Assembly (NCBI GenBank): GCA_030704615.1
Contig: CM060732.1
Location: 43,586,001-43,650,000 of the forward strand
DNA length: 64,000 nucleotides
From: Takakia lepidozioides
Lineage: Eukaryota > Plantae > Bryophyta
Direction of reading: 5' to 3'
The notes beneath the pieces were generated by a model, which searched no databases, was not told where the DNA came from, and saw only the letters and a program-made list of their open reading frames with translations. The first letter of the stretch is position 1; every line of letters starts with the position of its first letter. A program made the translations under genes and the position numbers. Positions 11,815 through 64,000 of this stretch are shown here, in pieces.

Positions 11815-14400
11815 TTGAGTGTAACACGGAGGTGCCACTAATTGCTGGGGACAGTGCCGGTTCGAGCACTAGCGATACTAGTGGGTACACTAGACGAGGT
11901 GTTGCGGTTTAGGCACCTCACCTCCTGTGTCTTCTACGGAAGGTTCTGATCGGATTGTGAATCAGGAGGACTCATACGGGCGGTGCAAGTTGTTTCCTTG
12001 CCATTGTTGTGGGACACAATGGAGGAGATGTATGGAGCTACCAAGGGGCCACGAAGGTACTCTGGGGCGGTGGGCACCATCAAGTTGGATGATTTTTATC
12101 CAAGAGTTTGATAGTTGGTGTGATTGCAGCAAATGCGCAATCCACGACTATTTACGCCTTTCATGGCATGGAAGGGGCTGTTTCAGCACCTTGAGGGGCC
12201 GCCTATGGATGATTACCATGAGTTCAGGCGGGGGCATGAGTGAGATGGAGGAGTGGAGGATATACTGGTCACCCGACTATGTCTCCATCACTGGGGGCAC
12301 TAGAGCACGAGGGCAATGGCTACACCTGCCGCTGCACCGGCAGCTTCAGCAAGCAGCAATAGGACTAGGGGGACTGGTGGTACAGTAGCTACGACGTCCA
12401 CCCAAGCCACTACCGCACCAGCACTAGTACCCGTGCCTGCCTTCAACCCTGTTGTGAGTTCTTCGAAGAGTTGAGAGGGAACTACCAAGGGGTGAGGATA
12501 GGAAGTTGCGGAGCTTGCAAGAGTTCCAACGGAAGTCGACCGAGAGCTTGAGGGAAGCTTTCACTCGCATGAGGCGCTTGATAAATGTAACCCAAGGGGT
12601 TACGGAAGCTCAGGCAGTCCAATTCTGGTATGGGATATGGACAAGGAGCTGAGGAGAAGGGTACGGGATGCAACTCTCCTACAAAGGCCCAACCCACCTT
12701 AGCAAATGTGTTTCTGCTGGCAGAGCGGATAGAGCTCAACATGGTGGAGGAACAAGTGGTCATGGTGGGATTTGCTAACGAGACACCATGGGGGTAGTGG
12801 TGCTCCTAGCCAACCACTACCTCAATGTGCTCAAGGCAACAAGGGGGCTCAGGGTGAAAGCTCAGGGAAGGGCAGCAGATAGGACCTCAGATGCAGGGGT
12901 CTCTCCCTTATTTGCTGGCCAACAACGAGCGGATGTGGTGTGCTGAATGTGGAGGACCCATGTCAAGAATGATTGCCCGAGGGAGGCAAAAGGCCGGCAT
13001 ATGCACAGCCTGCACAGTTGCAGTGTGGGCATTGTGGCAAGCACGGGCATGGAGAGGCCCAGTGTTATGGTTTGCATCCTGAGTTGCGCCCAGGCCAGTT
13101 CCAATGGAACAATGGTGGCCGGTGGCGAGGTGGAGCAGCCCAGAGAGGACGAGGTGGCCAAGCACGAGGTGCAGGCCAAGGGCAAGCTCAACATAGCCAA
13201 GGACGCGGAGGTCAGGGTGTTGACCAAGGCATGGCCAACCGGCTTCAGCAGCTAGAGCAGAGGCTCGCTGCCATGGCTACAGCTCAGGTGGTACCGGCTC
13301 CAAGGCCGGATGGTCCACCTCCTATTCCTGAGGGAGGAGATATGGGAGGCATGGGATTCATGTGCGGAGCAGCCCTACCACTAGTGCAGGTGGAGTGAGT
13401 CTGCTGCAGCCGTGACTCGCGGAGCAGCACGAGTCCTAAGCCACGAGGTGCAGAGGTGGAGTTGGATCCACAGCGTGGGGAGGCAAGCCGTCAAGCTAGG
13501 CTTCCTCAGTCATTCACATTGGCGGAGACAGTGTCGACGCCATCCATGGCACCTAGTTCTCGCCCGACTGTTACCGAGGCGGAGGTTACTATGCCATTGG
13601 GGAGAGCTACACAGGTAGCACCACTACCTAGTATTGCCAAGGCTACGGTAGCTAGTGTGCTGCTAGGAGCAGCCACATTTGTGTGCCAGGTTCCATTGTT
13701 CTCGGCTACCATGATTGCGATGAGGGGGGTAAGACCAACTGAGGTGTTCAGGCTGGCAGCTACACTCTGTGAGAGTGGGGAGGTTACTTCATCTTCTGCG
13801 GAGATAGTGGGAGGTGTAGTGCCGGAGGGATCCTCGGATTTGAGGGTCAAGACTGCCACGGCGGTGCCATGGCAAGTTACAGCTGCTGCCACGTTGATGG
13901 AGCTCTGCCAGCTCGGCCACAGCCATTGAGTGCACCATGGTGACACTGGAGTTGTCATGTTGGACAACCATGATGGCAGTTTCTGTTTGAGTGGATCGGC
14001 AGGCAAGAGGTACCGGCCACTGCGGGTCTTGTTGGACTCAGGAGCTTAGCCATTGATGTTGGGCAGAGCTGCTATTGCAAGCTTAGGCCTCATGGAGGCA
14101 GATATGGAGCCTTGTCCTTTCCAGATACAGACGTCTCTGGGAGGATCAGATCAGGCTCGGGGCATGACACGACATGAGTTGGCTATCAGACTACAGCCGG
14201 ATCATCCTACAGATGGCTCAGTAATGAGAGCCAAGGCCATTGTGACAAACGCGGTCTCGTACAATGTCCTTGTTGGTGGGGCAATGTTGTACCCCATGGG
14301 CTTCACCCTGGATTTTTGGGAGGAGTCAGCTTCCTATAGGCTTGGATGGCAGTCAGGGGAGGGCCGGCATGTGCAGCTCCCTGTGATGTTCATAGGAGGA
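11815..14400 (+). pseudogene. Gag (two CCHC zinc knuckles) and aspartic protease, copy 1
   Basis: Collinear with copy 2 (56593-59200). CGHCGKHGHGEAQC knuckle; LLDSGA at ~14028-14045; several stops and frameshifts. Confidence 0.8.
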
Positions 14401-14744: not shown

Positions 14745-15989
14745 AGACATTTGTCTTCTGGACTTGTTTGGCGGGATCAGCACCGGATTGGCTGCTGTGT
14801 TACAGGCAGGTGTACGAGTTTGGCGTTACCTGTATGTGGAGAAGGATGAGACTGCACGACGCATCTCACTCCATCATATTGCTCAGTTGGTGCAGCAGTA
14901 CCCTGAGTTGTTGCCGGTGTCGGCGGTTCGTGGATATCAGCAGGCCTTGCCAACAGACATCTCTTTGCTGGGGGCGCAAGATTTGGAGTGGGTTGGCTTC
15001 AATGATTTGGTAGTTGGCCCTGCCAAGGGTATTCATCAGCCGGGCATGGCAATGGATTGCGAGACTCGAGGTCGGGTCTGTTTTGGGAGATGGTGCGGGT
15101 TTTGCGCCACTTACAGCTTCATCAGGCTGTATCTCCAGCATACATCTTGGAGAATGTGCCACTGATGGGCGATTCTCGGGCCAAGATGATGGCCAGTGTG
15201 CATCAAGTCCGGTCGTGGCTTGGGTCAGCAGTGTTGCTGGATGCAGCTGCAGTGGGGTCACGGGCTCATCGTCCACGGTTATGGTGGACTAACTTGATGC
15301 CACCCGCACTACTTAAGCGTGCATTTGATGGGGTGCAGCGGCCAGCACACCTCACAGTGGATAGCATTTTGGACACATGGAGGCAGTCTCAGCGTGTGAG
15401 ACACGATGACCGTTTGCCTTTGGCAGTGGTCAACAAGGTGGGTCAACCACGAGCAGCACTACCTACACTGCTCAGCTTCCCAGGATCGCATGCTTTCCGG
15501 AATAATGGACCTGACCTCCTATGGGATCCTCAGTTGCAGCAATTAGTGGAGCCTAATGCCGACGAACGAGAGCGGGCTATGGGTTTTTCCACTGGGACCA
15601 CGGTGGTGCCTTCTCTTTCTGAGGCATCACGTCGTCAGGTGTTGGGGCAAGCAATGGATCTAAATTGCTTGACCTAGATTATCAGCTTGGCTATGGCTGA
15701 GCAACGAAGAGTGCGGAGTGCACTTCCCTTGACGGTCTCTCTGCCTACCGAGATGGTACAGGCAGTGAGTGGGGGCGAGCCGGTGAGGACCACAGGGTGT
15801 AGACATCCATGGCACACGTGGGAGGTGCTCGAGGTTCAGAGGGAGTTGGCAGCCAAGGCGGCTGTGATGGATGAGGTTTGGGATTCTTCTCGGGTTGAGG
15901 AGGTCCTCAAGGATGAGATGATGGGGCAGGATGAGGCCTTATCATTGACTGAGCAGGCAGGGAGTACTGCTCAAGAGGTTGCGGCATAG
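14745..15989 (+). pseudogene. Retrotransposon-borne DNMT3-like C5 cytosine methyltransferase plus linker, copy 1
   Basis: LLDLFGGISTG (motif I), YLYVEKD (II), WPCQG after a small frameshifting deletion (IV), ILENV (VI), AHRPRLWWTNL (VIII), ERERAMGF and RRQVLGQAMD (IX/X). Confidence 0.9.
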
Positions 15990-16324
15990 CAACCACGGGA
16001 CGCGTCCTCTACCTCTAAGTCTGTTGGACTTAAGGTTGCAGTTACGAAGGGCAATTGGGAGCCTGACATTGGACCTATTGTCACTAGAGGAGAGAGATGA
16101 CGTATACGGCGGTTCCTGAGGCTTACAAGAATTGCTTTGCCTCTCGTGCTACGGTGGAGGAGCATGAGAGACATGTTCAGGTTGTGCATCGACCAGGTTT
16201 GGTCAATAGGGATGCGGATGGATTGAGTCGCAATCCATGCACGAGCCAACAGGATGACATTGGAGCTCGGTGGCATGGTGAGACGGATGAGGAGATGGTG
16301 CCGGGATGACATGCATCTGCCTTT

Positions 16325-17830
16325 TTGTGTATCTTGGCATCGGGAGGTCAGGTTGGACCTACAACAGGGATGACTGTAGACGGAGTGTCTGAGGACCCTG
16401 AGGCTAGTGATGAGCCAGGTGGTGCCAGAGATATACATGAGGATTCGGTTGTGTTGGACTACCTCCGCACTAGAGACACGACAGCTAGTGTGACTGCCAA
16501 GGAGATGGATCGGATCCTAGAACAAGCCAAGAGGTTCAAGTGGGAGGGGATACACCTGCTTCAAGTGTGGGAGGATGGTCGGGTGAGGATCGTGCCTCAC
16601 CCAACACAGCGTGCACGGTTAGTGCGGCATGCCCATGAGAAGTTGGGGCATTTTGGAGTGCGACGCACTCATAGTTTACTGCAGGGGCAGTATTGGTGGC
16701 GTGGTATGCACGCAGAGGTGCAACAGTTCGTGGCTAGGTGCATGGTGTGTGACAGGGTGCGTGCTTCATTCAACGCCCCTACACCACAGTTGCATCCTTT
16801 ACCCATCATGGGATTGGGCTATAGGTGGAGTCTTGACTTTGCAGGGCCTTTGCCACTGACGATGCGTCACCACAGATATGTGTTGGTGATGGTGGAGTAC
16901 TTCTCCAAGTGGATTGAGTTGGTTCCATTGCCTGATAAGGCTAGTGAGGGGGCTGCGTATGCATTCCTAGATCGTGTGCTTAGCCAATTCGGTGCTCCAG
17001 CTGAGGTACTCACAGACCAAGGGAGAGAGTTATTGGGGGAGTTTCAGGCTTTGTGTGATAAAGCCTTGATAGACCACCGTACCACTTCTCGGGATCATCC
17101 TGAGGCCGATGGCTTGGCAGAGAGAGTGGTGCAGACTGTGAAGAGGGGTTTGCGCAAGTATGGCTTGCAAAAAGGACACCTAGGAGATTGGGATCTTCAG
17201 GTACCTTGGCTAGCCATGGGCTACAAGTTTAGCAAGCAAGCATCACTTGCCTCCTTCTCACCATATTTCCTTCTCTTTGGCCGAGAGCCAGATTTGCCTG
17301 CGTGTATTTGCAGGGAGGCTGCAGTAGTCCTCAACCTTGATGATCCGGATGTGTGGACACAAGCATGGGCCCAGCGGGCAGAGTTGTTCAAGAGAGTCAT
17401 GCCTATGGCTTTTGAGAATCTTGCTATTGACCAACACTGAGACACATTGAGGTATGCCACTATACGTGGAGGGGGATATCGGCCAGGTGTTCGGCGTTTC
17501 CACCCTGGGGACTATGTGTATCTGCAGCAGATAGCGCCTATGACCTTGGATGTCACAGCAGGATGTGTGATTCTAAGGGTCAGGGAGGTGTTGCCTTCAG
17601 GAGTGTTGATTCTGGAGGATCGAGATGGCATGGTATGGAAGGACCATGTGCGTTATTATGCGCCATGTCACCTTCCACATGTGGATGGGATGCTATGTGA
17701 GCATGCTCGTGGTGTCGCCACTATGCTGGTGTGTGATCGATGCTCAAGAGGTTGGCACATGGGATGCTTGACACCACCTCTTGAGAGGGTTCCTGATGGA
17801 GATTGGTTATGTCCACACTCCTTGGGATAG
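16325..17830 (+). pseudogene. Gypsy integrase with C-terminal PHD finger, copy 1
   Basis: HAHEKLGH..CMVC, SLDFAG, LTDQG, AERVVQ, FHPGDYV; then MLVCDRCSRGWHMGCLTPPLERVPDGDWLCP. One in-frame stop at 17438-17440. Confidence 0.9.
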
Positions 17831-18240: not shown

Positions 18241-18851
18241 GGTGTGCACATATGTTGTGCGGTTTGGACAACGATGTAGTTGTGTAGCGATATGTATGCG
18301 CACGACACCCTTATCCCTCCATTATGCTTCCAACTATACTGAGTGAGCTCTGAGTGGCAACTTTTATAAGCACATGCATCATTGCACCGTTCGAAGTCTA
18401 CATGTCTTCCTGTCGCTATGCACTGCAATCATCTTTTGAAGATGATCATAACTGTCATTGTTATTTGGGGAGGGACTCTGGCCTTCTCGTGGCAGCCTCT
18501 ATGGCGCACACTTTGTGAGGATATTTTCTCGTCCTCGTAATTGTTAAAGTGAAAGAAACATTTGTAATTGCACAATGTTGGATGCTACAATTGTAGGCCT
18601 CATGGTAGTCTTGATTATATTCAGCCAAGGATTCCTTGCATTAATTCCATGGTCATAGGACCATCCTCGGTTATAGGCGACGCATGTTAGTGCTGACGTG
18701 GCAAATGACGGCGCAGTGCCATGTCATCATTTGCCGCCATATCAGCCTGCTGACATGACGCTCACGCCACGTCAGCGTGGGTGCAGGCTCACGCCACGTC
18801 AACTGGCGTGAGCGTACGCTCACGCACAAGGCTCACGCCATTGCGTCGTTG

Positions 18852-29580: not shown

Positions 29581-30066
29581 CGATTGGTGTTGTATTAGGT
29601 TTCTTGGGTGGAAGGGGCCTAGGCAGAGCCTTTGGTCATTCGACAGACCAGTCTTTGGCTTTCTAGTTCAGCAAAAGTGGAACCCGAGGACAAAATCCAC
29701 TATCCCATCTCAGATGTTTTATTGAATTTGCATTGCGTAAAATCTAATTGAACTATATTGTCTCATCCTTCTACCCTGTCTTCTTGAGGGTCACATGTCT
29801 TGTGTACAGGATCTTCATATTCATACATTCATCCGATAATTGCCAGCTTAGCGTTTTCATTATCATTCGTTCCTACGTTCATCCAATAGTTGTTAGCAAA
29901 GGCGTTTGATTTATCGTTCATTCATACGTTCATCCAGTGCACAAAAATTATATTTCATACGTTCATCCAATAGCTGCCAGCAAGGCGTTTGTTTATCATT
30001 CGTTCAAATAGTTCAGTTGTTTTGTTTCACTAACCTTTCATATGTTCATCCAATAGTTGCTAGCGA

Positions 30067-35012: not shown

Positions 35013-36084
35013 GAGTTCACATGGTGCGATAGTTAGTTCGGGATAGTGCGATTTCCCATTTGGGTGTTTCTCATATTTCTCTGTCAATGCCAACAATACA
35101 TCTCACAAAGATTACACCCTTGCAGGGTAAGGGGATGGCAATCCGGGCAAACCCAGATGACAGTTTGTGGGTTAGGTCGGTGCCGAACTGTAGAACGTGT
35201 TTGAAAGTTGAACACAGGACCATGACAGAGAGGGCAGCTGAGTGGGAGACAGAGGGGGCAGGGGAGGGAGGGACGGTGGGGCCAGTGGCAGTAATAACGG
35301 AACAATAACGGGTGGAGGCAGGGAGTGGCAGGCGGAGGACACATGTGCCCAGCCTGCCCTGCTCTCTAAGTATGTACCGCAGTGTCCAGTCTGTGCTTGA
35401 TGACTTGAGGTGTGCCGCGTGGCCCTCAACAGGTTCCAGCACCAGTCTGTGTACAACCCTGCTTCCTTCTTCTGCTGTTGGAAATTGGGGATTGATAGCA
35501 GTGCAGTGCAAGGAGCCCCTTGCACTCGGCGTTGGAATAGGGAGTGGTCGGGGAGCATCGCATTGGAGCATCCGCATGTGCTTTGGCGGTCCACCCCGTT
35601 GAATGTCCCCCCCTTTGTCCCTTGTGGAGACTCGGAAGACTTGCGTGGGTTTCCTTAGGGGCCCACTTAAGTGGTAGGGGTGTCCTTATTGAAGGGAAGT
35701 TTGTCTGCGGGAAACCACGGGGCCTGCGTGGTTGGGCAGTCGGTTGAGAGGCCGATGTTGGGTTGCATGTGTCCAAGTTTGTGATACATTGCAGGCTGGG
35801 GTTGCAGATCTTGATATAGGTTCGAAAGGGTCCGATTAGTCTGTCGGCATTCTTGTTTCCGATCAGTTCGTTCTGCAAGGGTTTGTGGAAGCCTGACAAT
35901 TGCAAGGATAACCTCCGTGACACTTCCATGGTGTTTGGGATTGACGCGGCCTTGTTTTGAAGTGTTCGAGCGTCGGACAGTGATCATAGCCTGGCCATTG
36001 GACTTCGGTAACGTGTCTGTCAGCAGATCGGACCGGAAAAGATTTGGATTTGAAAAGGGAGACGACGAATATAGAGAAGCTGGG

Positions 36085-45500: not shown

Positions 45501-48500
45501 TCAGAGAGAATTGTCAGCAACGTACCCTTTGAAATCCTTCATAGCCCGCTCCATAGGGTACATCCACCGGGAGGTCACAGGGCCACACAAATCCAGCTCG
45601 TCAACTAGGTGGATAAGCAAATGCGTCATTATATCAAAAAAAGAGGATGGGAACTCTTTTTCAAGGAGGCAGAGTGTGACAGTCACCTCCTTCTTCAGCT
45701 CTTCGTGCTCGCTGGGATCAACCACTTTTGCACAGAGTTTGCGAAACACTCGGGATACTCGCAATATGACATTCCGTACACCCTTAGCCACGTAGAGCAA
45801 GAGGGAGAACTTGTTGCATAAGCACATGGTAGTCATGTGACTTTAGTTGTGAGAGTTTTTTTTTAACAACATGTTTTTTAAAGGCATATGCATACCCCGT
45901 TGGCACATTTAGCTTTGTGATTGTGTCCAGGAACACCCTCAGCTCATCTCCTGTGAGCACATACGGCGATGCAGGCATCACAAATGCGTTCTCCCTCGTA
46001 GGATGCCTTTGCAACCACAGGTGGGGACGAATGCCTTGTAGCTCAAAGTCACAACGCACCTTCATGGTATCATTTTCCCCAAAAATTGTCTTGATGATAT
46101 TTTCTGTGACATTCTTCTCGCAATGCATCGCGTCAATGGTGTGGCGGATCAGTAGGTGCTGCAATTCATGTGCCAAAACGATTCACAAGATAGTAAAATT
46201 GTGACACAAATATGCCAACACACTAACACACATCTGTGAATAAAAAACAAATGCACAAATATGCGAAATAGACAAGCATGAGTGATGAGTCCCCGCACCT
46301 CCCAATAAGGCAGACGATACAGAATGAACGGCCACTTGACACCATGGATTTTTGAGGGATTAGCCTCTGCGATTGAATCCTCATGCTCAACCCATTTTGA
46401 GTATTCCTAAGCACGCGACTTGATTTCACTGGCTGTCAAGAGCAGTGGAGCAGGTCTCATTTCTCGTTCGCCATTGAAGAGCCTAGATCTCCTGTATGCA
46501 TGGTCGGTGGGAAGAAATCTCCGGTGCCCCTGGAATATAATTTTGTGATAGGCTACCGAATACCGCGAATCAACTCCAGAGCCACATGCAGGGCAAGCTA
46601 CATAGCCTTGGTGAACTTGACTTGCTAACATGCAGTACGCTGGGAAGTCGTGTATGCACCACATTAGGATGGCCCGCATGTTGAAAGCTTGTTCATCCCG
46701 AATGCTGGCCACATCATGGGCTGGGACTCCCACCCACAATTCCGCCAGCTCCTCCACGAGGGGTTCAAGATACATATCAATGTTCTCCATCTTCACGGAC
46801 TCATTCCATGGAATGAGCAGCGACAATATGACAAAGAATTTCTCGGTCACCAACCAAGGAAGTAAATTGTAGTTGAGTAGTAGAATGGGCCATGTTGACC
46901 AACTCGTAGATTTTGCGCCATAAAGATTCACCCCATCCAATGCCAAACCCAACGACGCTACCGCGTGAGCTTGGCGTGTGAGCGTGTGAGCGTAAGCTCA
47001 CACAATGGTGATGTGGCGTGAGCCTACGCTCATAGCGCTAACGTGGCGCTGGTGTTGATGTGGTGTGAGCCCACCCAAAGTCTTGCCACGTCACCACAAA
47101 GATGGTGGGCCTATAACCATGGAGCCTATAACTATGGGATTTCACCATCTGAAGGTGAGATGGGTTAAGGGTTTAGGGCGTCCGCAGAGATCAACCTTGT
47201 GTTAACATGAGGTTGATTTCAGATAACTTGAAATAAACCTTGTGTTAACATGAGGTTGATTTCAGATAACTTGAAATGAACCTTGTGTTAACATGAGGTT
47301 GATTTCAGATAACTTGAAATGAACCTTGTGTTAATACGAGGTTTCCTAGAACTGAAATCAACCTTGTGTTAACACGAGGTTGATTTCAAGTTCCGAGAAT
47401 GTTCATTTGAATGTGACTTGATGTGTTCGCAAATGAACAAATGAGTTTGAGGAACGAATGCAACAAATGGTAATCGCATGCGCCACACGATTGATGACGT
47501 GACATACACCGATAGACATACGACTTCAATTTATTTATTTATTTTTCTCCGGGGGGTGATGCAAATCAACCTTGCGTTGATGCAACCTTGATTTGAGAAA
47601 TGAAAGCATCATTTTTTGAAGTTTTTTTTTTTTTTTTTCCCCTTCCTTGGGGGGTGATACAAATCAACCTTGCGTTGACGCAACATTGATTTGAGAAATG
47701 AAAGCATCATTTTTTGAAAAAAAAAAAAAAAAAACTCAACAAAAAAAAAAACTCCCTTGGGGGTGATGGAGATCAACCTTGCATTGATGCAACCTTGATG
47801 GAAAAAATGAAAACATTTTTTTTTTAAGTTTGTGTTTTTTGTTTTTTTTGTTTTTGGGAGGGTGATGCAAATCAACCTTGCGTTGACGCAACCTTGATTT
47901 GAGAAATGAAAGCATTCTTTTTTGAGGACTATTTTTTGCATCTTGTATGGTTGCTGGCCCTGTTGTTCTTCGTTTCGTGTCTTGCATTGCAAATCTTGCG
48001 AACCTGTTCTGCACCATACTTTTTCATAAACCGCAAAGTCGCTTTAGGGATTTCCTGGTGTTTGTCTGGAGAACGTCTATCAATGAAAAGTGGATGTGAA
48101 TTGGGAGAAGGAGCTTCGTTAGAACAAACTCATTCTCCTTCGTGTTCATTACACAATAAGACATTGTACTCTATGAAATATCTTGTGCCCGTGGACAAAA
48201 ACCATCCACAAACACCCGTGATTTGTCATCCGACCAAGATTTGGATGAGGGAGGAGACTTCTCGGAAAATAAAGTTGGCAAATCTGGGGCATGGTAGTCG
48301 CCTACAGTTTTGCGGAAATAGGTGGCATCCGCGGAATTAGGTCCTAAACGTGGGAAACCTTGCTGACGTGGCGTGAGTCTGGCTGGGCTCACGCGCTCAC
48401 AGGTTCATGTGCAAGCATTCCCCTGCCAAACCAAGACGCAAGTTGCGTGGATCTGATGCGAACTCCGGCCAAGTGTTGTCAATGTGCGACCAGGCTTTGC

Positions 48501-49301
48501 TATCTGCAGCATGACGAACGAGCCTATCCTTGCTTTTGTGATTGATATGCCAACTCATGAGCTCTGCCACCGATTTCACTCTAAACATTCGTTTCAACCT
48601 CGGTATGACAGGGAAGTGCCGCAAAACTTTCTTAGGCACCTTCCCATGACCTGCAAAATACCTTCCACTTTGGCACTTTGGGCAAATCTCCGTTTTCTCA
48701 AGCTCTCCACGGAACAACACACAACCCTGTTCGCAGGCATGAATCTGTTTGTATGCTAGCCCCATCCTGATGATCATTGTTTTTGCCTCATAATGTGATT
48801 TCGGTAACACATTCTCTAAGTTAGGCAAAAATGAATCTTTCAGTAATGAGAGGAGCTCATCCACAAACGCATTTGTACACTTGTGGGTCGTGCAACAATT
48901 CAGCAGCATCAAAGTTGCTGTCAATCTACTGTGATGATACCCTTCATACAAAGGAATCTGTGATTCACTGCATATTTTGGCATAGTCTCATTCAGTTTGT
49001 TGTCTCTCATCCCACCTCCGTCGTGCAACCCAGTCGAATTTGTGGCATTGCCTGGTTCCTCAGTGCTTGTATGGGGAATGCCAAATTCATCTTCATTCAT
49101 TTGTGAAGTCGCCTCCCTTCTGATTCTGTCAGTTGTTTCAAAAACCTCTTGCAAAGCACGTTGCATCTCCTGTTGTAAAAGTTGTTCTTGGTCAGGTTCA
49201 CCCACACCCATCGTTTCAGGTGTAGGACTGGATGGTCCTTCCTCCCTGTCCGAATCTTCATCATACATAATGTGAGCCTGTAATTTGTAGCACTGAAGCA
49301 T
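45501..49301 (-). pseudogene. Second CACTA/EnSpm transposase, interrupted by a MULE-derived element
   Basis: IHACEQGCVLF, LRHFPVIPRL, DPRNLRLGLA|LDGVN, IDAMHCEKN, KSHDYHV, FFDIMTHL, RWMYPMER. Confidence 0.92.
46950..48423 (-). mobile_element. Non-autonomous MULE-family element, TSD TGCCAAACC
   Basis: CAACGACGC start and GCATTCCCC end. TGCCAAACC at 46941-46949 and 48424-48432. Internal palindromic tandem repeats, including 43-bp units at 47194-47390. Confidence 0.88.
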
Positions 49302-49905
49302 GACTCAGCAGTGCAGATACATCACTGAACGCGAAATGACAAGTCAATGTTGTCAGCTGGTATGCCTTGGGCCAGTTCAAATATCTGTAAGTACCCAGCT
49401 CAATGTAGGTCATGTGTAAGTATCCAGGCAGATAGAGAAACTACCCGTCCACAGTTGCATTGCCCCAATTTTGAAAGTACTTGCCAAGTACTTTATGGAA
49501 AGGAAGAATACATACCCCATTACAGGGGGGCAAACACAGTGCATGAGAATATGGTGGTTGTATTTGCCAAAAAGAAGCAATTGAATTGACCTCTCTAGCA
49601 TTCAAGGAAAGAGGCATTGGTAGCATGCCAAAAGAGGGTGAAAGCCAACCATTCATGCACCGGACGCGCAACAAGAGTGAGGCCTATTACATTTGGTCGA
49701 TTTTCTGCCCAAGACCTGCATGACTTCTTGGTAAATGGCACCTGATTTCTATTTTGTCATTGTATGATCCTCATTACCAATGTTTTTCCCTGGTGGTTGT
49801 GTGAGGGTTGAGTTTTTGCCAATTGTCTAGGGTGAGTTTTGACCAGCATTGTGTTGTGTGTTGCACAGGAGGAAGAAGCGTGCATCGGTTGGTGGACCCA
49901 ACACT

Positions 49906-54655: not shown

Positions 54656-55234
54656 TGGTAGCCAGGCTTCCTGAATGAGGGAGAAGGACGCCGGTGCACG
54701 TTTGAGGACAGACAATCCCTGCACAGCAACTCCCGAAGTTGAAGATTTCTCCAAAGAACGAGCAGCAATGGCCATAGTTACCAAAATGGCTGGTACAGTT
54801 GTAACGACCATGCTTGCAAGATCGCATCTCGGATTTAATGAAACAGGTTCGGGATGAACTGACTCCCTTGTCATTCCTTCCAGGATTCTTGCTGTGAGTG
54901 AGATCTTCACATTCTATAAGGGAGGCCGGACGGAGTGGATCGTAGCCCAAGATATTTTCGTGCTGGGAGCTCAAAAATGTTGTTTATAGTGGAGAACTTA
55001 GAATTCGCAGGGAACCGAGGAACAGGGAACCAAGACGGATTATTGGAAATAGATTTTTCATTTGAATGACATATATTATGTTTAAAGAGCCTGTTTGGCC
55101 ATAACTTTGTCATACAAAGGCTGTTTGACTTCAAATTTGCGCGAGGACCTGCAGATTGTGGAAATCCACATACTCAAACCTGGTTTTAGTTTTTTGGACT
55201 CTGCTAAAAATCTATGGATTTTTTTTGAGTGTGA

Positions 55235-56074
55235 GTGTGTGGATGCTATGAAAGATCCACAACTCTGTTTCAGCTAGAACCTGTTGTGGTCTACATGAGA
55301 GACAAGTTTTGTGGATGTCCTCCTTGTATGGCTGGGGGCAATGAGGATGTAATTGAAGGGCAGGTCTCTTCTCTTAGCCTGTGCACACACGGAGACAAGA
55401 TTTATGTTTCTCAAGGAACTCAGACTGATTTGAGTGGAGAGCAGTTGGACGAGTTGATTGCATACTGGGAGTCGGGCATTAGCAATAGACAACAAACTGC
55501 TGTAGTTGGCGTTGAGGGCCTCAATATTGCTTTGGCCAGTCAAAACTCTGTTGGAGCAAGCAGTTCTGCTGTAGGTGAAATACCAAAGTGGGTGAAAGCT
55601 AGGCTTGGAACACAGCCAAAGACAGCCCCAGGGACCAAGGTGTTCAGCCACAAGGCCGTGGTGTACTGGAGCAGAGGAGCAGGAGCTGCACAAGTTTGTG
55701 CAATCAGACATGGTTGCAGCCGGATACGCTCTGCACAAGGCAACCACGAGCGGGGGTTCATTAGCAATGTCAAGTTTGTTTTGCTTGAAGGAGATGCAGT
55801 CATTCGTAATGAGGACACCCGCAACCGTCTCAAAGCTTTTGAGTTGAGAGACTATCAGACCCTACCTTTGTTTTCTTTAGTGTTCAATGAGCGGGAGATA
55901 TGGGAGTATTGCTTTGTCTCTACCTGGCAGAAAGAGGAGGAGGGTTGGTTAGAGCGAGCTACTGTAGCTTGGGACAAGGTTAGTGGCAGGTTTCTGGACA
56001 TAGATATACCTCCTACACCTTACCATCAAGCAGAGCGAGGCACTTTGAGAGAAGTCTGGCAGTTGATAGCATAG
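55235..56074 (+). CDS. Unassigned open reading frame (up to 279 aa; first ATG at 55295) upstream of gag in copy 2
   Basis: 840 bp without a stop in otherwise decayed DNA. No motif recognised. Confidence 0.4.
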   Translation: MCGCYERSTTLFQLEPVVVYMRDKFCGCPPCMAGGNEDVIEGQVSSLSLCTHGDKIYVSQGTQTDLSGEQLDELIAYWESGISNRQQTAVVGVEGLNIALASQNSVGASSSAVGEIPKWVKARLGTQPKTAPGTKVFSHKAVVYWSRGAGAAQVCAIRHGCSRIRSAQGNHERGFISNVKFVLLEGDAVIRNEDTRNRLKAFELRDYQTLPLFSLVFNEREIWEYCFVSTWQKEEEGWLERATVAWDKVSGRFLDIDIPPTPYHQAERGTLREVWQLIA

Positions 56075-56592: not shown

Positions 56593-59500
56593 GTGGGGGA
56601 GGTGCACATTGTGAGTGTCATCACGGAGATACCCAGGGGTTCTGAGGGGAGTACGGCTACAGGCAGTAGCAATGAGAGTGGGTTCACCAGACGAGGTGTT
56701 CGTTTCAGACCACCTTCACCTCCACCCTCAACTAGTGCAGAGTCAGACACAGATTCGGAGGCTTCATCAATAGGTATGCAGTTTCATTCGCCATTGTTGT
56801 GGGACGACATGGAGGAGATGTATGGAGCTACCAAGGGGCCTCGTAGGTACTCTGGAGCTGTGGGCACGATCGAGTTGGATGACTTTATCCAGGAGTTCGA
56901 CAGCTGGTGTGATTTGCAGCAGATGCGCAATCCACAGTTATTCACCCCATTCATGGCGTGGAAGGGACTGTTCCAGCATTTGGAAGGCCCGCCTATGGAC
57001 GATTACCACGAGTTCAGGCGAGGACATGAAGCAGAGATTAAGGAGTGGAGGATGTATTGGTCACCTGACTACGTCTCCATTACTCGAGGCACGACGCGAC
57101 TAGTAGCTGCATCAGTACCAATATCTCCCACTGCCAGCACTAGTAGTGGAGCAAGTAGTGCCGGTACTTCTGTAGGTGGTACTAGTGCAAAAGGTGCTAC
57201 TACTCCTCCTGCCACGACTACAACACATGTGCCTAGATTCAACCCGGTGGTGGAGTTCTTCCAGGAGTTGCGGAGGAACTACCAAGGTGTAAGGACAGAG
57301 AAGCTGCGAAGTTTGCAAGACTTCCAGCGCAAACCCAGTGAGAGCATGCGAGAGACGTACACTCGTATGAGGCGCTTGATAAGTGTGACCCAAGGGGTTA
57401 CTGAAGCTCAGGCAATCCAGTTTTGGTATGGAATTCTGGACAAGAGAAGGGTGCGAGATGCAACCCTGTTACAAGCAGCCCAACCCACATTAGCAGATGT
57501 GTTTCTGCTGGTTGAACGGATTGAGCTCAACATGATGGAGGAGCGAATTGTTACCATTGGATTTGGCAAGGACATGCCTGCACGAGGCGCAGCTGCCAGC
57601 CCACAGGCACAAGGGACTGCCCAACAGCGTGGTCAGGGGGGCAAGGGTTCCATGGAGCTTAAAGGGGACATCAGGTGCAGAGGCCCGTGGCATCTTTTGC
57701 AGGCCAACAACAACCAGGGGTGATATGTTGGACATGTGGAGGACCCCATGTCAAGAGAGATTGCCCAGAGAGTGGCAGAAGGCCGGCACAAGCACAGTTG
57801 CAGTGTGGGCATTGTGGCAAGTATGGGCATGGAGATGCCCAGTGTTATGACTTGTATCCTCAGTTGTGCCCAGGCCAGTTCCAAGGGAACAATGGTGGTC
57901 GGGGGCAAGGTGGACCAGCCTAGAGAGGACGAGGTGGTCGGGCACGAGGTGCAGGCCAAGGGCAAGCTCAACATGGCCAAGGACGCGGTGGTCAGGGTGT
58001 TGACCAAGGCATGGCCAACCGGCTTCAGCAGCTAGAGCAGAGGCTCACTGCAATGGCTATAGCTCAGGCGGTACCGGCTCCCAGGCGGGATGGTCTACCT
58101 CCTGCTCCTGAGGGAGGAGATATGGGAGGCATGGGATTCATGTGCGGAGCAGCACTACCACTAGTGCAGGTGGAGTCTGCTGCAGCCGTGACTCGAGGAA
58201 CAGCACGAGTTCCTGAGCCACGAGGTGCAGAGGTGGAATTGGATCCACAGAGTGGGGAGGCAAGCCGTCAGGCGAGGCTTCCTCAGTCATTCACATTGGC
58301 GGAGACTGTGTCGACGCCATCCATGACACCTAGTTCTCGCTCGACTGTTACCGAGGCGGAGGTTACTATGCCATTGGGGAGAGCTACACATGCAGCACTG
58401 ACACCTGCTACCAAGGCTAGTGCAGCCGGTGTGTTATTGGGGGCAGCCACCTCTGTGTGTCAAGCCCCACTGTTCTCGGCAACCATGATTGCGACGCCAG
58501 GGGTAAGGCCAGCTGTAGTGTTCAGACTAGCAGCAACACTTTGTGAGAGTGGGGAGGTCACTTCATCTTCTGCGGAGTTACTGGAAGGTGTAGTGGCAGA
58601 GGGATCCTCAGATTTGAGGGTCAAGACTGCCACGGCTGCGCCATGGCAAGCTGCAGCTGCCAGGTTGATGGAACTGCCAGCTAGGTCAGCCTTTGAGCGC
58701 GCCATGGTGACACCTGGAGTTGTCTTGTTAGACAACCAGGATGGCATTTTCTCTTTGAGTGGACCGGCAGGCAAGAAGTACCGGCCACTGCGGGTCTTGT
58801 TGGACTCGGGAGCTCAGCCACTGATGTTGGGCAGAGCTGCTATTGCAGGTTTGGGCCTCATGGAGGCAGATATGGAGCCTTGTCATTTCCAGATACAGAC
58901 ATCTCTGGGAGGATCAGAGCAGGCTCGGGGCATGACACGGCGTGAGTTGGCCATTGGACTACAAGCAGATCATCCTGTAGATGGCTCAGTGATGCGAGCC
59001 AAGGCCATTGTGACAGACGCGGTCTCTTACAATGTCCTCGTTGGTGGGGCAGTGTTATATCCCATGGGCTTCACCCTGGACTTTTGGGAGAAGTCAGCAT
59101 CCTACAGGCCTGGATGGCAGTCAGGGGATGGTCGTCGTGCACAGCTCCCTGTGACATTCATTGGGGGTATTGCGGCTGCCCAACGGGGCAAGATGCCAAC
59201 ACTAGCCGCCTTTACAGCTGCAGTTAGTTGGCCTGGAGAGTTGCTGGAGGGCAATGCCCATGCAGAGGATGTGCCACCTCCAGCAGAGCAGGATGACATG
59301 CATGGTATGGCGGAGTTGCCTGCCATGGTTGCTCACACTCCATCGTGGGGTACGAGCAACGATTTGCAGCAGATTGCTGATGGACGGGTGCAACAAGCTT
59401 GGGTAGAAGCTTTCATACCGTCAGGAGAGGAGGAGAGTGCGGTGATTGCACCAGGACCATCCCAGTTGTCGCCATTGGACACCACACCTCTTGTGTGGCA

Positions 59501-61499
59501 GTGCCCGGATGAAGGCATATGCCTTCTGGACTTGTTTGGCGGGATCAGCACTGGATTGGCTGCAGTGCTGCAGGCAGGTGTACGAGTTCGACGTTACTTG
59601 TATGTGGAGAGGGATGAGACTACTCGACGCATCTCACTGCGCCATGTTGCTCAGTTGGTACAGCAGTACCCTGTTTTGTTGCCAATGTCTGCAGTTCGTG
59701 GATACCAACAAGCCTTGCCAGCAGACATTTCGTTGTTGGGGGCGTAGGATTTGGAGCAGGTTGGCTCGATTGATCTAGTAATGCCAGGTTGGCCCTGCCA
59801 AGGGCATTCATCAGCCGGGCATGGCAATGGATTGCGAGACTCGAGGACGGGTCTGTTTTGGGAGATGATGCGGGTTTTGCGCCACTTGCAGCTTCATCAA
59901 GCTGTATCTCTACCATACATCTTGGAGAATGTGCCACTGATGGGTGATTCTCGGGCCAGGGTGATGGCCAGTGTGCATCAAGTCCGGTCGTGGCTTGGGT
60001 CAGCAGTGTTGCTGGATGCAGCTGCAGTGGGGTCACGGGCTCATCGTCCACAGCTTTGGTGGACTAACTTGATGCCACCCGCACTGCTCAAGCGTGCATT
60101 TGATGGGGTGCAACGGCCAGCACACCTCACCGTGGATGGCATTTTGGACACAGGGAGGCAGTCTCAACGTGTGAGACACGATGACCGTTTGCCTTTGGCA
60201 GTGGTCAACGGGGTGGGTCAACCACGAGCAGCATTACCTACACTACTCAGCTTCCCAGGGGGTCAATGCAGGATAGGGTCCACCCAAAACTGGCAGAATC
60301 TGGGAGTCCTCGACTTCACGTTCATGGACAATGTATGTTTAGACAAACCTATTTGTGAAACCTTGAAGACTACATACATATGATATCATGCTACCTCCCT
60401 AGGTTTATTTATCAATCTCACCCTTTATTGACATCAATTCATAGATTGAAAATTTGCAAGTCTTCATAGGTGGGTTCGATTCTAAATTTTGTAGGCATAT
60501 TTCCCTCCATAAGCTTTCAATCCATCTTATTGTGAAAGGAGATATAAAAAATAATGAAGATTGCATGTCCAAAATCAATGTGCTAATTCACGAAATTTAT
60601 AAATATTTAATTACGTCTAAAACTTGTAGGGGAGGAAATTTTGACCTTTGAACCAGATTTTCATATAACAAGGGAGATCAATGAAGGTGGTTAAATTTTC
60701 CATCTACAATGGATGTCGGATTCATTTCCCAATGAGTCCATGAAGGGCATATCACCCGTTGAGACCGCACAAGCTTCATGCACTCATGGACTTATATGGA
60801 TTTTCAAATCTTGTCAGATTTGTCTGATTCAAATTTCATTATGTTCGAAACGTCAACAATGGTCTAGATTTTGCTTCATAACCAATAAAAAATTCCAACT
60901 TAACATCTTCATTGAGTCCTATATATACAAAATGCAAAAATAAACTGTCTGGGACTTCCATTTTGGGCTGACCCTACCATGCTTTCACCCCAGGATCCCA
61001 TGCTTTTCGGGATGGTGGACCTGGCCTCTTGTGGGATAGCCAGTTGCAACAGTTAGTGGAGCCTAATGCCGACGAGCGAGAGCGGGCTATAGGATTTTCC
61101 ACTGGGACCACGGCGGTGCCTTCTCTTTCTGAGGCATCACGTCGTCAGGTGTTGGGGCAAACAATGGATCTCAATTGCTTGACCTGGATTATCAGCTTGG
61201 CTATGGCTGAGCAACGTAGAGTGCGGAGTGCACTTCCCTTGACGGTCTCTCTGCCTACCGAGACGGTACAGGCAGCGAGTGGGGGCGAGCCGGTGAGGAC
61301 CACGGGGTGTAGACATCCATGGCACACGTGGGAGGTGCTCGAGGTTCAGAGGGAGTTGGCAGCCAAGGCAGCTGTGATGGATGAGGTTGGGGATTCTTCT
61401 CGGGATGAGGAGGTTCTCAATGATGAGATGATGGGGCAGGATGAGGCCTTGTCATTGACTGAGCAGGAAGGGAGTACTGCTCAAGAGGTTGCAGCATAG
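56593..61499 (+). pseudogene. Gag-protease-DNMT3-like C5 methyltransferase polyprotein region, copy 2
   Basis: CWTCGGPHVKRDC and CGHCGKYGHGDAQC knuckles; LLDSGAQP; LLDLFGGISTG, GWPCQGHS, ILENV, AHRPQLWWTNL, RRQVLGQ. Protease and DNMT motif I share one frame (58011-59747). Stop at 59745 and MITE at 60260. Confidence 0.92.
60260..60990. mobile_element. MITE with GGG...CCC termini and 4-bp TSD (CAGG), inserted in the DNMT domain
   Basis: 30-bp TIRs (24/30 match). Copy 1 shows the empty site CTTCCCAGGATC. CAGG at 60256-60259 and 60991-60994. Confidence 0.88.
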
Positions 61500-63903
61500 C
61501 AACCAGGGGACGCGTCCTCTATCTCTAAGCCCACTGGACTTAAGGTTGCAGTTACGGAGGACAATTGGGAGCCTGACATTGGACCCATTGTCACCGGAGG
61601 AGAGAGACGACGTATACGGCGGTTCCTGAGGGCTTACAGGAATTGCTTTGCCTTCAGTTTGAAGGACTTGGGAGCACTGAAGGGTCAAGAGATCCGTATT
61701 GAGTTGGCCACTGACACGCCAATCTTTCGGAGACCCTATAGATACAGTGACATGGAGAGGTCTTTGATTCAGATGAGGACTCAAGATCTCTGGGAGGCAG
61801 GTTTGGTGGAGCTCTCTGGTGGAGAGTATGCTTCGGCCACAGTGATGCCAGCCAAGAGTCTATGGCAATTGGACGGAGAGACGTATGTGCGGTGATTACC
61901 GACCTGTAAATCGTCAGACCAAGTCCGATAGGTATGCCATGCCGACACCAGAGGAGATCTTTGATGCCATTGGGCATTCCAAGGTCTTTAGCACGTTGGA
62001 TTTACGATCCGGATATCACCAGTTGCCGATCAAGGAGACGGATAAGCAAAAGACGCCATTCTGGGGGATCAATGAGCACGGGAAGGATTGCCTATACCAG
62101 TGGCGGTTCTTACCATTTGGGCTTAAAAACGCTCCCGCTGAGTTTCAAAGAGTCATGGACAGGATTCTAGCAGGGGTGGAGTTTGCTTGGTGCTACATAG
62201 ATGACATCATCATCTTTAGTGCTACGGTGGAGGAGCATGAGAGACACCTTCAGGGGGTATTTGAGCGCTTGAGGACGCACGGATTGAAGTTACATCCGGG
62301 CAAGTGCAAGTTTTTCCATAACCAGATTGAGTATATGGGTCACATGATATATCCTGGAGGATTGGGGGTACAGCAGACTAAGGTAGAGTCCATTGCACAT
62401 GTTCCACACCCCACGGATGTGAGCCGAGTTTGAGCTTTCATGGGGTTAGCAAACTATTACAGACGGTTTGTTAAGGGATTTAGTGCCATTGCAAAGGCTC
62501 TAACTAAGCTGACCAAGGTGGACCAGGAGTGGCAGTGGGAAGATGAGCAAGAACAAGCTTTTCAAGAGCTCAAGGCGAGGTTGACCTCGGCGCCCATCTT
62601 GAGACGACCTATCAGGGGGCGTCCTTTTCAGCTGCATACAGATTGGAGCATGCTGGGGCTTGGAGCGGTGCTCACACAGGTGGATAATGAGGGAAGAGAG
62701 TTCGTAGTGGCTTATGCTAGCCGCTCGAACAATGCTGCAGAGTCTAAGTATAGCTCATATGAGGGAGAATGCTTAGCTGCAGTGTGGGCCGTGGCACACT
62801 TCAGGTGCTATCTATACGGCAATCTCTTCACCCTTGTCACGGATCACCAACCACTCAAATGGTTGATGGAGTCAGACAAGCTTACGGGGAAGCTTGCACG
62901 GTGGGCACTCATCCTTCAAGAGTATGACTTTCAGGTGGTGCATCGACCGGGTTTGGTCAATCGCAATGCAGATGGGTTGAGTCGGAATCCATGCACGAGC
63001 CAGCAGGATGACACTGGAGCTCGGTGGCATGGTGAGACGGACGAGGAGATGGTGCCCGGATGGCATACATCTGCATTTCTGTGTATCTTGGCAGCGGAAG
63101 GCCAGGTTGGACCTGCAACAGGGATGACTGTAGATCAAGTGTCTGAGGACCCTGAGGCCAACAATGAGCAAGGTGGCGCCAAAGATATACATGAGGATTC
63201 AGTTGTGTTGGACTACCTCCACACTGGAGACACTGCAGCCACTGTGACTGCCAAGGAGAGGGATCGGATCCTACAACGAGCCAAGAGGTTCAAGTGGGAG
63301 GGGACACACCTACTCCAAGTGTGGGAGGATGGTCGAGTGAGGATTGTGCCTCACCCAACACAGCGGGCACGGTTAGTGCGGCATGCCCATGAGGAGTTGG
63401 GGCATTTTGGGGTGCGACGCACTCATAGTCTACTGCAGGGGCAGTATTGGTGGCGTGGTATGCACACAGAGGTGCAACAATTTGTGGCTAGGTGCATGGT
63501 GTGTGACAGGGTGCGTGCTTCATTCAACGCCCCTACTCCACAATTGCACCCTCTTCCGATCATGGGATTGGGCTATAGGTGGAGTCTTGATTTCGCAGGG
63601 CCATTGTCACTGACCATGCGTCACAACAAGTACGTGTTGGTGATGGTAGAACACTTCTCCAAGTGGATTGAGTTGGTTCCATTGCCTGATAAGGCTAGTG
63701 AGGGAGCTGCGTATGTATTCTTGGATTGTGTGCTTAGCCGATTCGGTGCTCCAGCTGAGGTACTCACGGACCAAGGGAGAGAGTTCTTGGGGGAGTTTCA
63801 GGCTTTGTGTGACAAGGCCTTGATATACCACCGCACCACTTCTCGGGATCATCCTGAGGCCGATGGCTTGGCAGATAGAGTTGTTCAGACTGCGCAAGTA
63901 TGA
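61500..63903 (+). pseudogene. Reverse transcriptase, RNase H and integrase, copy 2
   Basis: MCGDYRPVN, LDLRSGYHQ, LPFGLKNAP, YIDDII, LHTDWS, YEGECLA, TDHQPL, ADGLSR, HHCC and DDE. Frameshift near 61855 and stop at 62431. Confidence 0.95.
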
Positions 63904-64000
63904 CTTGCAGAAGGGACACCTAGGGTGGGACCTTCAGTTACCCTGGTTAGCCATGGGCTACAGGTTCAGCAAGCAAGCATCACTTGTCTCCTTCTCACCA

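Follow-up and report, generated by a model that had tools for sequence, protein, structure and literature searches.

A Ty3/Gypsy retrotransposon in the moss Takakia lepidozioides, probably of the KnitGypsy-Dnmt3 lineage, with an integrase PHD finger and a DNMT3-like domain at the end of its Gag-protease frame

Retrotransposons known to carry DNMT domains

The closest described system is KnitGypsy-Dnmt3 of Klebsormidium nitens (de Mendoza et al. 2018, PMC5890265), a Gypsy element with A-coding-B-A-B repeats whose DNMT was placed in the Pol ORF, as an acquisition of the K. nitens lineage, and evolves under purifying selection (Ka/Ks <0.2). The isolated domain produced no DNA methylation in yeast, a result that the authors call inconclusive (PMC5890265). 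SymbioDIRS-Dnmt3 of Symbiodinium, which establishes de novo CG methylation in yeast (PMC5890265), likewise has a DNMT3-clade domain in a retrotransposon polyprotein, but it is a dinoflagellate element of the DIRS class with a tyrosine recombinase, whereas the element described here has a DDE integrase and, in its relatives, TG...CA ends with 4-bp duplications. The EpiLTRs of Cymbomonas and Euglena (bioRxiv 10.64898/2026.05.21.726589) are also LTR elements in which a C5 DNMT is combined with a domain that reads chromatin; their DNMTs, however, are sister to DNMT4 and accompanied by Dam and a chromodomain, and the same preprint sets them apart from 'streptophytes (Gypsy-DNMT3)'. Among host enzymes, PpDNMT3b (Yaari et al. 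2019, PMC6453930) and animal DNMT3A/B have their fold, linear motif order and de novo class in common with the domain predicted here, but host DNMT3 genes have extra N-terminal domains and occur in single or few copies, whereas here a bare catalytic domain lies in a retrotransposon polyprotein. The link to the RdDM-independent host DNMT3 of mosses is one of analogy only.

The window, a stretch of 64,000 nucleotides from Takakia lepidozioides, contains two copies of such an element. A host HMGR maps as far as Streptophyta (score 0.88, a lead), and the place of the element in our trees makes a land-plant host likely. The copies are not a new family type and probably represent the land-plant side of the KnitGypsy-Dnmt3 lineage already published: the Gypsy gene set and order (PR, RT, RH, IN) and the unrearranged, intronless DNMT3-related domain are the same, and A-coding-B-A-B repeats are seen in the relatives L025, L045 and L068 (the three complete ones among 22 loci compared with themselves; copy 2 runs off the window). 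The earlier note was not aware of any characterisation of such elements in land plants. We indeed found no paper describing a Gypsy-DNMT3 element there, and the text of the REXdb paper makes no mention of PHD, methyltransferase, Marchantia or Klebsormidium, but the family type was already known. What is new is that the DNMT forms the end of the Gag-protease ORF and is followed by a conserved stop-CAR-YY.

Two decayed copies in the window

Each copy is a Ty3/Gypsy element that includes a C5-methyltransferase domain (Table 1). PF00145, which the earlier note had proposed as a check, matches copy 1 at 15006-15674 (E 1.4e-10) and copy 2 at 59748-60380 (E 1.1e-9). The copies are 82-93% identical, depending on the segment, and were inserted separately. 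Pfam places a weak protease upstream of the copy 2 DNMT and RVT_1, RT_RNaseH (E 2.6e-36), Integrase_H2C2 (E 1.6e-16) and rve (E 1.2e-12) downstream. In copy 1, RT and RNase H were deleted near 16140-16180, so the protease-DNMT-RT order is directly visible in copy 2 only: the note's claim of two separate insertions with a methyltransferase between protease and RT stands for domains, motifs and insertions, and for the order in one copy. Its motif set is present as well, but AHRPRL (motif VIII) and ERERAMGF (motif IX) belong to copy 1, copy 2 having AHRPQLWWTNL and ERERAIGF. Similarly, the copy 2 DNMT does begin in frame with the protease, as had been claimed, but an internal TAG (59745-59747) and a 732-bp MITE (60259-60990) interrupt it, and in motif VIII a Gln stands in place of the second Arg. 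Copy 1 has a frameshift at ~15010 and a stop at 15675-15677, directly past motif X. Both window copies are dead, and neither can encode an active enzyme. The MITE has ~30-bp imperfect terminal inverted repeats and a 3-bp CAG duplication; it is skipped, at the joint 60253>60989, in three of four runs, and its depth is ~1,000-fold lower.

Table 1. Features of the two copies in the window
Feature	Position	Strand	Basis or remark
Probable 5' terminus (TG), copy 2	55325..55330	+	inferred from depth step and contig start
279-codon open frame in 5' non-coding region, copy 2	55235..56074	+	ORF list
Gag-like region, copy 2	56809..57723	+	purpose-built GAG HMM; frame broken ~57.65 kb
Aspartic protease (LLDSG), copy 2	58692..59135	+	Asp_protease_2 E 0.0046, below cut-off; purpose-built HMM
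DNMT3-like C5-MTase, motifs I-VIII and target-recognition region, copy 2	59511..60258	+	in protease frame; PF00145
MITE, 732 bp, AT-rich, inside copy 2 DNMT	60259..60990	.	absent from copy 1
DNMT C-terminal part, motifs IX and X, copy 2	60991..61196	+	comparison with copy 1; HMM
Stop TAG-CAA-CCA closing Gag-PR-DNMT frame, copy 2	61497..61505	+	stop-CARYYA context; pol in same frame
Reverse transcriptase, copy 2	61846..62433	+	RVT_1 E 4.5e-32; frame broken ~61.86 kb; stop 62431
RNase H and DDE integrase, copy 2, running off window	62434..64000	+	Pfam
Decayed gag and protease, copy 1	12019..14367	+	copy comparison; HMM
DNMT3-like domain, copy 1	14749..15686	+	PF00145 E 1.4e-10
TAG-CAA-CCA readthrough-type stop, copy 1	15987..15995	+	
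Integrase, copy 1 (RT, RNase H deleted upstream)	16310..17440	+	Pfam; copy comparison
PHD finger ending integrase, copy 1	17669..17815	+	PF00628 E 3.2e-9
3' terminus, copy 1 (...GCACGACA)	18269..18307	+	matches conserved B-repeat end of relatives

The depth of contigs in host DNA steps up ~12-fold between the 55000-55300 bin and the next, and a contig begins at 55325, the probable 5' terminus of copy 2, where TGTATGGC begins. The 279-codon frame has no match in Pfam or among the fetched loci or proteins. The Gag-like region has no Pfam match and is 60% identical to the N-terminus of Marchantia Mp4g09160. In copy 1, which closes at its B terminus, a 5' A repeat was looked for and not found, and the search for a target duplication returned candidates at chance level only. 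Relatives have TG...CA ends with 4-bp target duplications, the duplications being present in five of the six in which both ends were tried (L016 was left out of this count, as its 3' coordinate is not a terminus). A DIRS order, which implies a tyrosine recombinase and no target duplication, was rejected in view of these duplications and of the DDE integrase.

The tail of copy 1 has no Pfam match to a chromodomain. The best PDB matches of its PHD finger are CHD4, PHF12, PHF21A and ATXR5, and the nearest solved relatives also include KDM5B, BAZ2A and AIRE. The PHD fingers of CHD4, PHF21A, ATXR5, KDM5B, BAZ2A and AIRE are readers of unmethylated H3K4, a logic also followed by the ADD domain of DNMT3A.

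The DNMT domain in its family

Sequence and predicted fold both make the domain DNMT3-like, as the earlier note had read it, with DNMT3A/B as the nearest solved relatives: phmmer ranks DNMT3A (6e-12) before DNMT3B (1e-9), DRM (1e-8 to 2e-4) and M.HaeIII/M.HhaI (4e-4 to 4e-3), and all 35 Foldseek matches listed are DNMT3A/B/C (best E 3.8e-19, at 19-24% identity), the query being an AF2 model (mean pLDDT 90.4) of P0002, a natural homologue of the same family as the window domain. The best PDB match of the copy 1 domain itself is DNMT3A (E 0.0011). Motifs I-X lie in linear order, intronless and unrearranged, within the polyprotein region. Membership in DRM was rejected because the motifs are linear and not circularly rearranged; DRM2 matches just motifs I-V, at its C-terminal end. 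Among 56 family elements, the catalytic Cys and the ENV Glu are found in all and each motif VIII Arg in 53.

The DNMT is kept under purifying selection. Between copies 1 and 2 its dN/dS is 0.25 (bootstrap 0.14-0.40, 311 codons), slightly higher than in K. nitens, next to 0.24 for the protease and 0.15 for the integrase, with a method that drops stop codons and poorly aligned windows and is thereby biased downward; among 22 related loci the values are 0.38 for the DNMT, 0.38 for RNase H and 0.84 for the PR-DNMT linker. Summed contig depth in host DNA, which is not a copy number, is 0.63-1.26 million in the uninterrupted DNMT bins, 0.91-1.24 million over RT-IN and 1,109 in the MITE, and DNMT, RT, RH and IN lie together on a 5-kb contig that has a second species label. 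A broad alignment gave no conserved pattern for the related-locus search, and a narrower one was used instead. In the resulting 79 loci, most of which derive from few related metagenomes, RT/RH/IN are present in 43 of the 45 whose downstream sequence reaches 1.5 kb or more, and a protease in 39 of the 53 whose upstream sequence reaches 1.2 kb or more. Profile matches at E<=1e-30 form 624 clusters at 50% identity, the domain order having been checked for the 150 listed. The CpG o/e is ~0.5 in the element and 0.65 in a host HMGR exon; it is uninformative, since ordinary host methylation suffices to explain the depletion.

Relatives occur in Marchantia, Calypogeia, Riccia, Sphagnum, Closterium and chlorophytes, and in Coleochaete as pol only. 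They show two arrangements, the DNMT lying before RT (land-plant type) or between RNase H and integrase (chlorophyte type). The Marchantia relatives are near-identical, motif-complete ORFs of ~1,280 aa; M. polymorpha has several Gag-PR-DNMT gene models, 95-98% identical, five with 7/7 checked motifs, and these versions are apparently intact and unrecognised. No break interrupts the DNMT domain of the models Mp4g09160, Mp5g06330, Mp5g06860 and MpVg00370. Taken with the selection measured and a DNMT depth equal to that of RT/IN, the named proteins from Marchantia, Calypogeia, Riccia and Sphagnum uphold the earlier view, dN/dS check included, that the domain is not neutral but integral to a family that transposed in embryophytes. 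The leaky-stop context, the integrase PHD finger, the relatives' split terminal repeats and the wide green-plant range were not part of that view. A bacterial origin was rejected: among 131 candidate stretches there was one GTDB locus, L078, and this complete retrotransposon, found on a MAG contig of 9 kb, reads as eukaryotic contamination. A viral origin was likewise rejected, given one weak IMG/VR match of 20 (E 7e-7, 64 aa), and the viral C5-MTase clusters of the Atlas are generic look-alikes.

In K. nitens, KFL_013780020 (zf-CCHC, PR, DNMT) adjoins KFL_013780010 (RT, RH, IN) on a 7,497-bp contig; presumably they form one of the published KnitGypsy-Dnmt3 copies. Identity with copy 2 is 37% in the DNMT and 59% in RT-RH, and both pol and DNMT fall among type-A elements in our trees, in which deep nodes, the place of K. 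nitens included, are poorly supported. These are quick SH-aLRT trees without a host DNMT3/DRM outgroup, built from 20/20 type-A proteins, 25 of the 65 type-B proteins with both domains, 9/79 loci, copy 2 and four gene pairs, three of them paired by equal-sized contigs only. The DNMT and RT trees have matching clades and the two sets of distances are correlated (rho 0.59, n=56, 0/999 permutations higher), an agreement that points to one old capture. Repeated horizontal transfer among algae and bryophytes, as opposed to descent from a streptophyte ancestor, would fit an RT-RH in the window that is 81-82% identical to that of Marchantia or Sphagnum-type elements, a Coleochaete pol closer to the bryophyte clade than Closterium elements are, and a patchy distribution, with no named seed-plant, fern or Physcomitrium match among the matches listed. 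We consider it doubtful, as synonymous sites are saturated between the window and moss-type copies (pS ~0.73), and the succession K. nitens/Closterium, then Coleochaete, then bryophytes, with the chlorophytes set apart, largely tracks the host tree.

The domain order is gag-PR-DNMT-stop-RT-RH-IN-PHD. A stop-CAR-YY lies between DNMT and RT in 51/58 type-A copies, against 5% by shuffling, and is absent in seven. Three type-B loci were left out of this count, which uses a fixed window chosen after seeing the data; a strict CARYYA regex had matched 13/61, two of them off-position. The stop-CARYYA readthrough consensus is that given in PMC5397192. Full CARYYA is found in distinct subfamilies, and the Sphagnum-type majority (38/51) has stop-CAA-CCC. 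Wherever DNMT and RT share one frame, a stop intervenes (30/30 loci), and the Marchantia gene models terminate there. The stop has no stable RNA structure after it (z -0.87). Because the DNMT closes the Gag-protease ORF before this conserved context, it is probably made at the Gag level, RT and IN being reached by readthrough.

Proposed Gag-level expression and role of the DNMT domain

We thus propose, with a probability of about 0.6, that the window elements are PHD-bearing Ty3/Gypsy elements of the KnitGypsy-Dnmt3 lineage whose DNMT, at the end of the Gag-protease frame, likely methylates the element's new cDNA; self-methylation is our best inference on the role of the domain. In this mechanism: (i), most ribosomes would halt past the DNMT and few would read through into RT/RH/IN, so that the DNMT would be present at Gag stoichiometry; (ii), the DNMT would be packaged in the particle and freed by the protease; (iii), it would methylate the double-stranded cDNA, most likely in CG context by analogy with DNMT3A and SymbioDIRS-Dnmt3, and new insertions would therefore be already methylated on arrival, which would let them pass as 'self' or silence themselves; and (iv), the PHD finger would steer integration toward chromatin without H3K4 methylation.

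The DNMT could also be active mainly after integration, riding with the PHD-bearing integration complex and methylating flanking chromatin or other copies, as a seeder of heterochromatin or a copy-number control. An integrase ending in a PHD finger with the solved relatives named above, the chlorophyte-type DNMT directly preceding the integrase and the de novo methylation of heterochromatin by moss host DNMT3b (PMC6453930) speak for such a role; we think it unlikely for the land-plant type, where the DNMT lies in the Gag-level frame and is parted from the integrase by a stop, so that a particle-bound role fits better. Retention for a task other than DNA C5 methylation, be it RNA methylation or nucleic-acid binding in packaging or priming (linked to the split repeats), would account for the lack of DNA methylation by the KnitGypsy domain in yeast and suit a protein of Gag-level, structural abundance, and for another TE DNMT, RNA methylation is a possibility brought up by de Mendoza et al. 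(PMC5890265). It appears improbable given that 56 distant elements show almost no variation at the catalytic Cys, the Glu of ENV and the arginines of motif VIII, that the nearest fold is DNMT3 and not DNMT2, and that the related SymbioDIRS-Dnmt3 enzymes methylate CG (PMC5890265). As for the passive capture of a host gene fragment that does nothing for the element, the broken state of both copies is what it would predict, but the selection and distribution data already refute it and leave it scarcely credible: dN/dS is 0.25, the DNMT keeps its position in liverworts, mosses and algae, its depth equals that of RT/IN, and 624 clusters match the profile (order checked for the 150 listed).

Self-methylation of the cDNA thus being the preferred reading, it is tempting to speculate further, and only tentatively, that a DNMT3 was captured by one Gypsy lineage no later than the chlorophyte-streptophyte split and has been kept since; that the domain moved from the RH-IN junction to the Gag-PR end, where a leaky stop would yield capsid-level DNMT; and that copies may be born methylated and aimed by the PHD finger at H3K4-unmethylated chromatin. 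With the present data, what seemed the oddity of a single alga becomes an old green-plant lineage, and PF00145 counts in bryophyte genomes, together with a few bacterial MAG genes, should be read with caution as transposon-derived. The role of retrotransposon-encoded DNMTs has been open since 2018, Symbiodinium and Klebsormidium being hard hosts and the Gypsy enzyme silent in yeast. With motif-complete models in Marchantia polymorpha, the question can be put to the test in a genetic model for which methylation mutants exist. On the same tentative reading, the lineage would be potentially active in this liverwort, its ORFs annotated as hypothetical host genes, and it may add RdDM-independent de novo methylation to bryophytes.

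Two decayed copies of the element

The retrotransposon copies that the earlier note had described as carrying a C5-methyltransferase (DNMT) are real: they are 82-93% identical depending on the segment, and the PF00145 score exceeds its cut-off in both. The full motif set claimed for them is present in the DNMT region of both copies, except that in copy 2 the second Arg of motif VIII is replaced by Gln. Both copies are dead. The copy 2 DNMT is interrupted by a TAG (59745-59747), and frameshifts occur at several points of that copy; in copy 1 the frame shifts near 15010, a stop follows motif X, and both reverse transcriptase (RT) and RNase H (RH) are missing. The MITE inserted in the copy 2 DNMT, which we take to be PIF/Harbinger-like, has imperfect TIRs of about 30 bp (GGG...CCC), is single-copy within the window and has a read depth far below that of the retrotransposon.

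A 279-codon open frame (55235-56074, +) spans the probable 5' repeat of copy 2; it has no Pfam match and no homologue among the retrieved related loci or proteins. Elsewhere in the window, the Orbi_NS1 match of the 334-aa ORF is probably spurious and this ORF looks like a DNA-transposon remnant. The inverted repeats around the second CACTA set occupy 47.0-48.4 and 49.9-51.2 kb, and another repeat occurs in two inverted copies (4295-5974 and 26565-28273; 83-94% complementary, about 20-24 kb apart).

Features of the window and of two related loci
Feature	Position	Strand	Remarks
334-aa ORF	6233-7237	+	weak Orbi_NS1 Pfam match, 20.7 bits (cut-off 27)
Copy 1	about 11.4-18.3 kb	+	related to copy 2
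Copy 1 DNMT-frame stop	15987	+	TAG-CAA-CCA
Copy 1 PHD finger	3' part, on integrase	+	E 3.2e-9
Copy 1 3' terminus	ending at 18307	+	...GCACGACA
CACTA Tnp2 transposase remnant	20587-21417	-	PF02992, E 7e-62
PPR fragments	29126-29666		
HMG-CoA reductase exons (host gene)	35815-38386	+	PF00368
CACTA Tnp2 transposase remnants, second set	45784-49304	-	between long inverted repeats
Copy 2	about 55.3 kb to window end	+	related to copy 1
Copy 2 gag	from 56809	+	
Copy 2 protease	58692-59135	+	
Copy 2 C5-methyltransferase	59511-61196	+	PF00145
MITE in copy 2 DNMT	60259-60990		732 bp, AT-rich; 3-bp CAG duplication
Copy 2 DNMT-frame stop	61497	+	TAG-CAA-CCA
Copy 2 RT	from 61846	+	then RNase H and integrase
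Type-B loci	L070 2541-3509; L072 8001-8978		RT-RH-DNMT-IN-PHD, one ORF

Identity and lineage of the methyltransferase element

The proposed DNMT3 likeness is borne out by sequence and by structure. P0002, a natural unbroken homologue, ranks DNMT3A first in PDB (E 6e-12), then DNMT3B, DRM and bacterial enzymes, and its predicted model (pLDDT 90.4) retrieves DNMT3A/B/C in 35/35 of the Foldseek matches listed; the window's own 223-aa fragment also finds DNMT3A best in PDB, weakly (E 0.0011). DRM identity was ruled out because the motif order is linear. In the 56 elements that combine a DNMT with RT, no change is seen at the catalytic Cys or at the ENV Glu, and each Arg of motif VIII is conserved in 53.

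The RT-RH and DNMT trees recover the same clades: one of 15 rows comprising the window, liverworts and Sphagnum-type loci (SH-aLRT 97 in either tree), one of Closterium, and type B (100 and 96). DNMT and RT distances are correlated (rho 0.59, n=56; 0/999 permutations higher). Copy 2 is sister to liverwort and moss rows; its DNMT is 70% identical to that of Marchantia and 37% to that of Klebsormidium nitens, its RT-RH 82% and 59%, respectively. In K. nitens, KFL_013780020 (zf-CCHC, protease (PR), DNMT) adjoins KFL_013780010 (RT, RH, integrase (IN)). The accessible text of PMC5890265 describes KnitGypsy-Dnmt3 of K. nitens with split terminal repeats, A-coding-B-A-B, and the relatives L025, L045 and L068 share them, starting with TG and finishing with CA. 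On the strength of the shared clades, the K. nitens gene pair and these repeats, the window element very probably belongs to the KnitGypsy-Dnmt3 lineage, the repeats being known from relatives rather than from the window copies and the deep nodes of both trees being without firm support. Target duplications of 4 bp were found in 5/6 relatives tried. The internal B|A junction of L025, L045 and L068 (CA-NN-TG) resembles a two-LTR circle junction. Locus L030 (4065-12704) is an A-coding-B copy whose 4-bp duplication is intact, a form that recombination between split repeats should produce and that copy 1 may share.

The novelty in land plants put forward earlier holds in part: the element is a land-plant member of an already published architecture, but no land-plant description was found in the non-subscription literature searched, including the accessible text of PMC5890265, bioRxiv 10.64898/2026.05.21.726589, PMC12344493, PMC6317226, PMC6453930, PMC5397192, PMC11982613, PMC10952607 and PMC9246332. 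In the same search the name KnitGypsy occurs in one paper only; the accessible text of two later papers of that group, whose trees may include bryophyte sequences, mentions TE DNMT3s of 'streptophytes'.

An integral domain across green plants

That the DNMT is integral to the family, as had been suggested, agrees with the host DNA run: summed contig depth, of which only the ratio between bins is used since it is not copy number, was 0.63, 1.26 and 0.98 million in uninterrupted DNMT bins, 0.91-1.24 million across RT-integrase and 1,109 in the MITE bin. The similar depths argue for a DNMT in most copies. Under a second species label, one 5,009-nt contig runs through DNMT, RT, RH and IN and lacks the MITE. 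The DNMT is also under selection: between the two copies its dN/dS was 0.25 (0.14-0.40), that of protease 0.24 and that of integrase 0.15, and among 22 related loci the DNMT had 0.38 vs 0.84 for the adjacent linker, all values being lowered by the removal of stops and poor windows.

The DNMT profile matched 624 clusters (50% identity) at E<=1e-30. Named homologues among the matches listed (best 120 per list) come from Marchantia polymorpha, M. paleacea, Riccia sorocarpa, Calypogeia fissa, three Sphagnum species and the alga Closterium, with none from a seed plant, fern or Physcomitrium; hosts among 20 further representatives include K. nitens, Closterium, Scenedesmus and Cymbomonas, and a Coleochaete transcript encodes a close pol. 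RT/RH/IN are present in 43/45 DNMT-anchored loci with enough downstream DNA and protease in 39/53 with enough upstream DNA, the 79 loci not being independent because most are near-relatives grouping with Sphagnum proteins. Two domain orders occur: type A (PR-DNMT-RT-RH-IN-PHD) and type B (RT-RH-DNMT-IN-PHD), the latter in full in at least 44 proteins among the matches listed (Scenedesmus being the only named example), often with WEC instead of WPC in motif IV, and with no description in the accessible text of the literature searched. This order is found within one ORF, examples being P0352 and the Scenedesmus pol KAF8056149. In Marchantia, cluster P0124 comprises 18 members. Identities of 95-98% link six ORFs of 1,194-1,281 aa, which are annotated as hypothetical or CCHC proteins and of which five contain all seven checked motifs. 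A complete element, L078 (1-9206; P0151 and P0493 listed with it), in a cyanobacterial MAG and a related annotated DNMT in an Obscuribacterales MAG are probably eukaryotic contamination. P0310, among the RT matches, is a Gypsy polyprotein with a Dam domain (PF05869), in agreement with the DAM-LTR preprint.

A probable leaky stop and possible self-methylation

In both window copies the stop lies about 100 codons past the DNMT, with pol-type sequence in frame beyond. Stop-CAR-YY occurs in 51/58 type-A copies, vs 5% by shuffling, and not at type-B loci; where DNMT and RT share one frame (30 loci), one or more stops separate them in every case. According to the accessible text of PMC5397192, readthrough in plants has the consensus stop-CARYYA; its full form is present in the window, L020, L054-L056, L058, L066, L067 and L078, and the majority, of Sphagnum type, has CAA-CCC. 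Gag, PR and DNMT form a single ORF in Marchantia models and L078. From these contexts we infer that most translation would end past the DNMT, producing it at Gag level, and that readthrough would give RT/IN.

The PHD finger has CHD4, PHF12, PHF21A, ATXR5, KDM5B, BAZ2A and AIRE as nearest relatives, whose PHDs are readers of unmethylated H3K4; it has Gly in 63/66 at the presumed site of the cage Trp in H3K4me3 readers.

An abundant, particle-associated DNMT3 would meet double-stranded DNA first as the element's own cDNA, so that putative methylation of this newly made cDNA is our best reading, with a probability of about 0.6 for the whole. The K. nitens KnitGypsy domain, which showed no activity in yeast according to the accessible text of PMC5890265, counts against methylation. 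What the domain does can be tested directly, given the range of the family, the leaky-stop expression model and the Marchantia copies with complete motifs.
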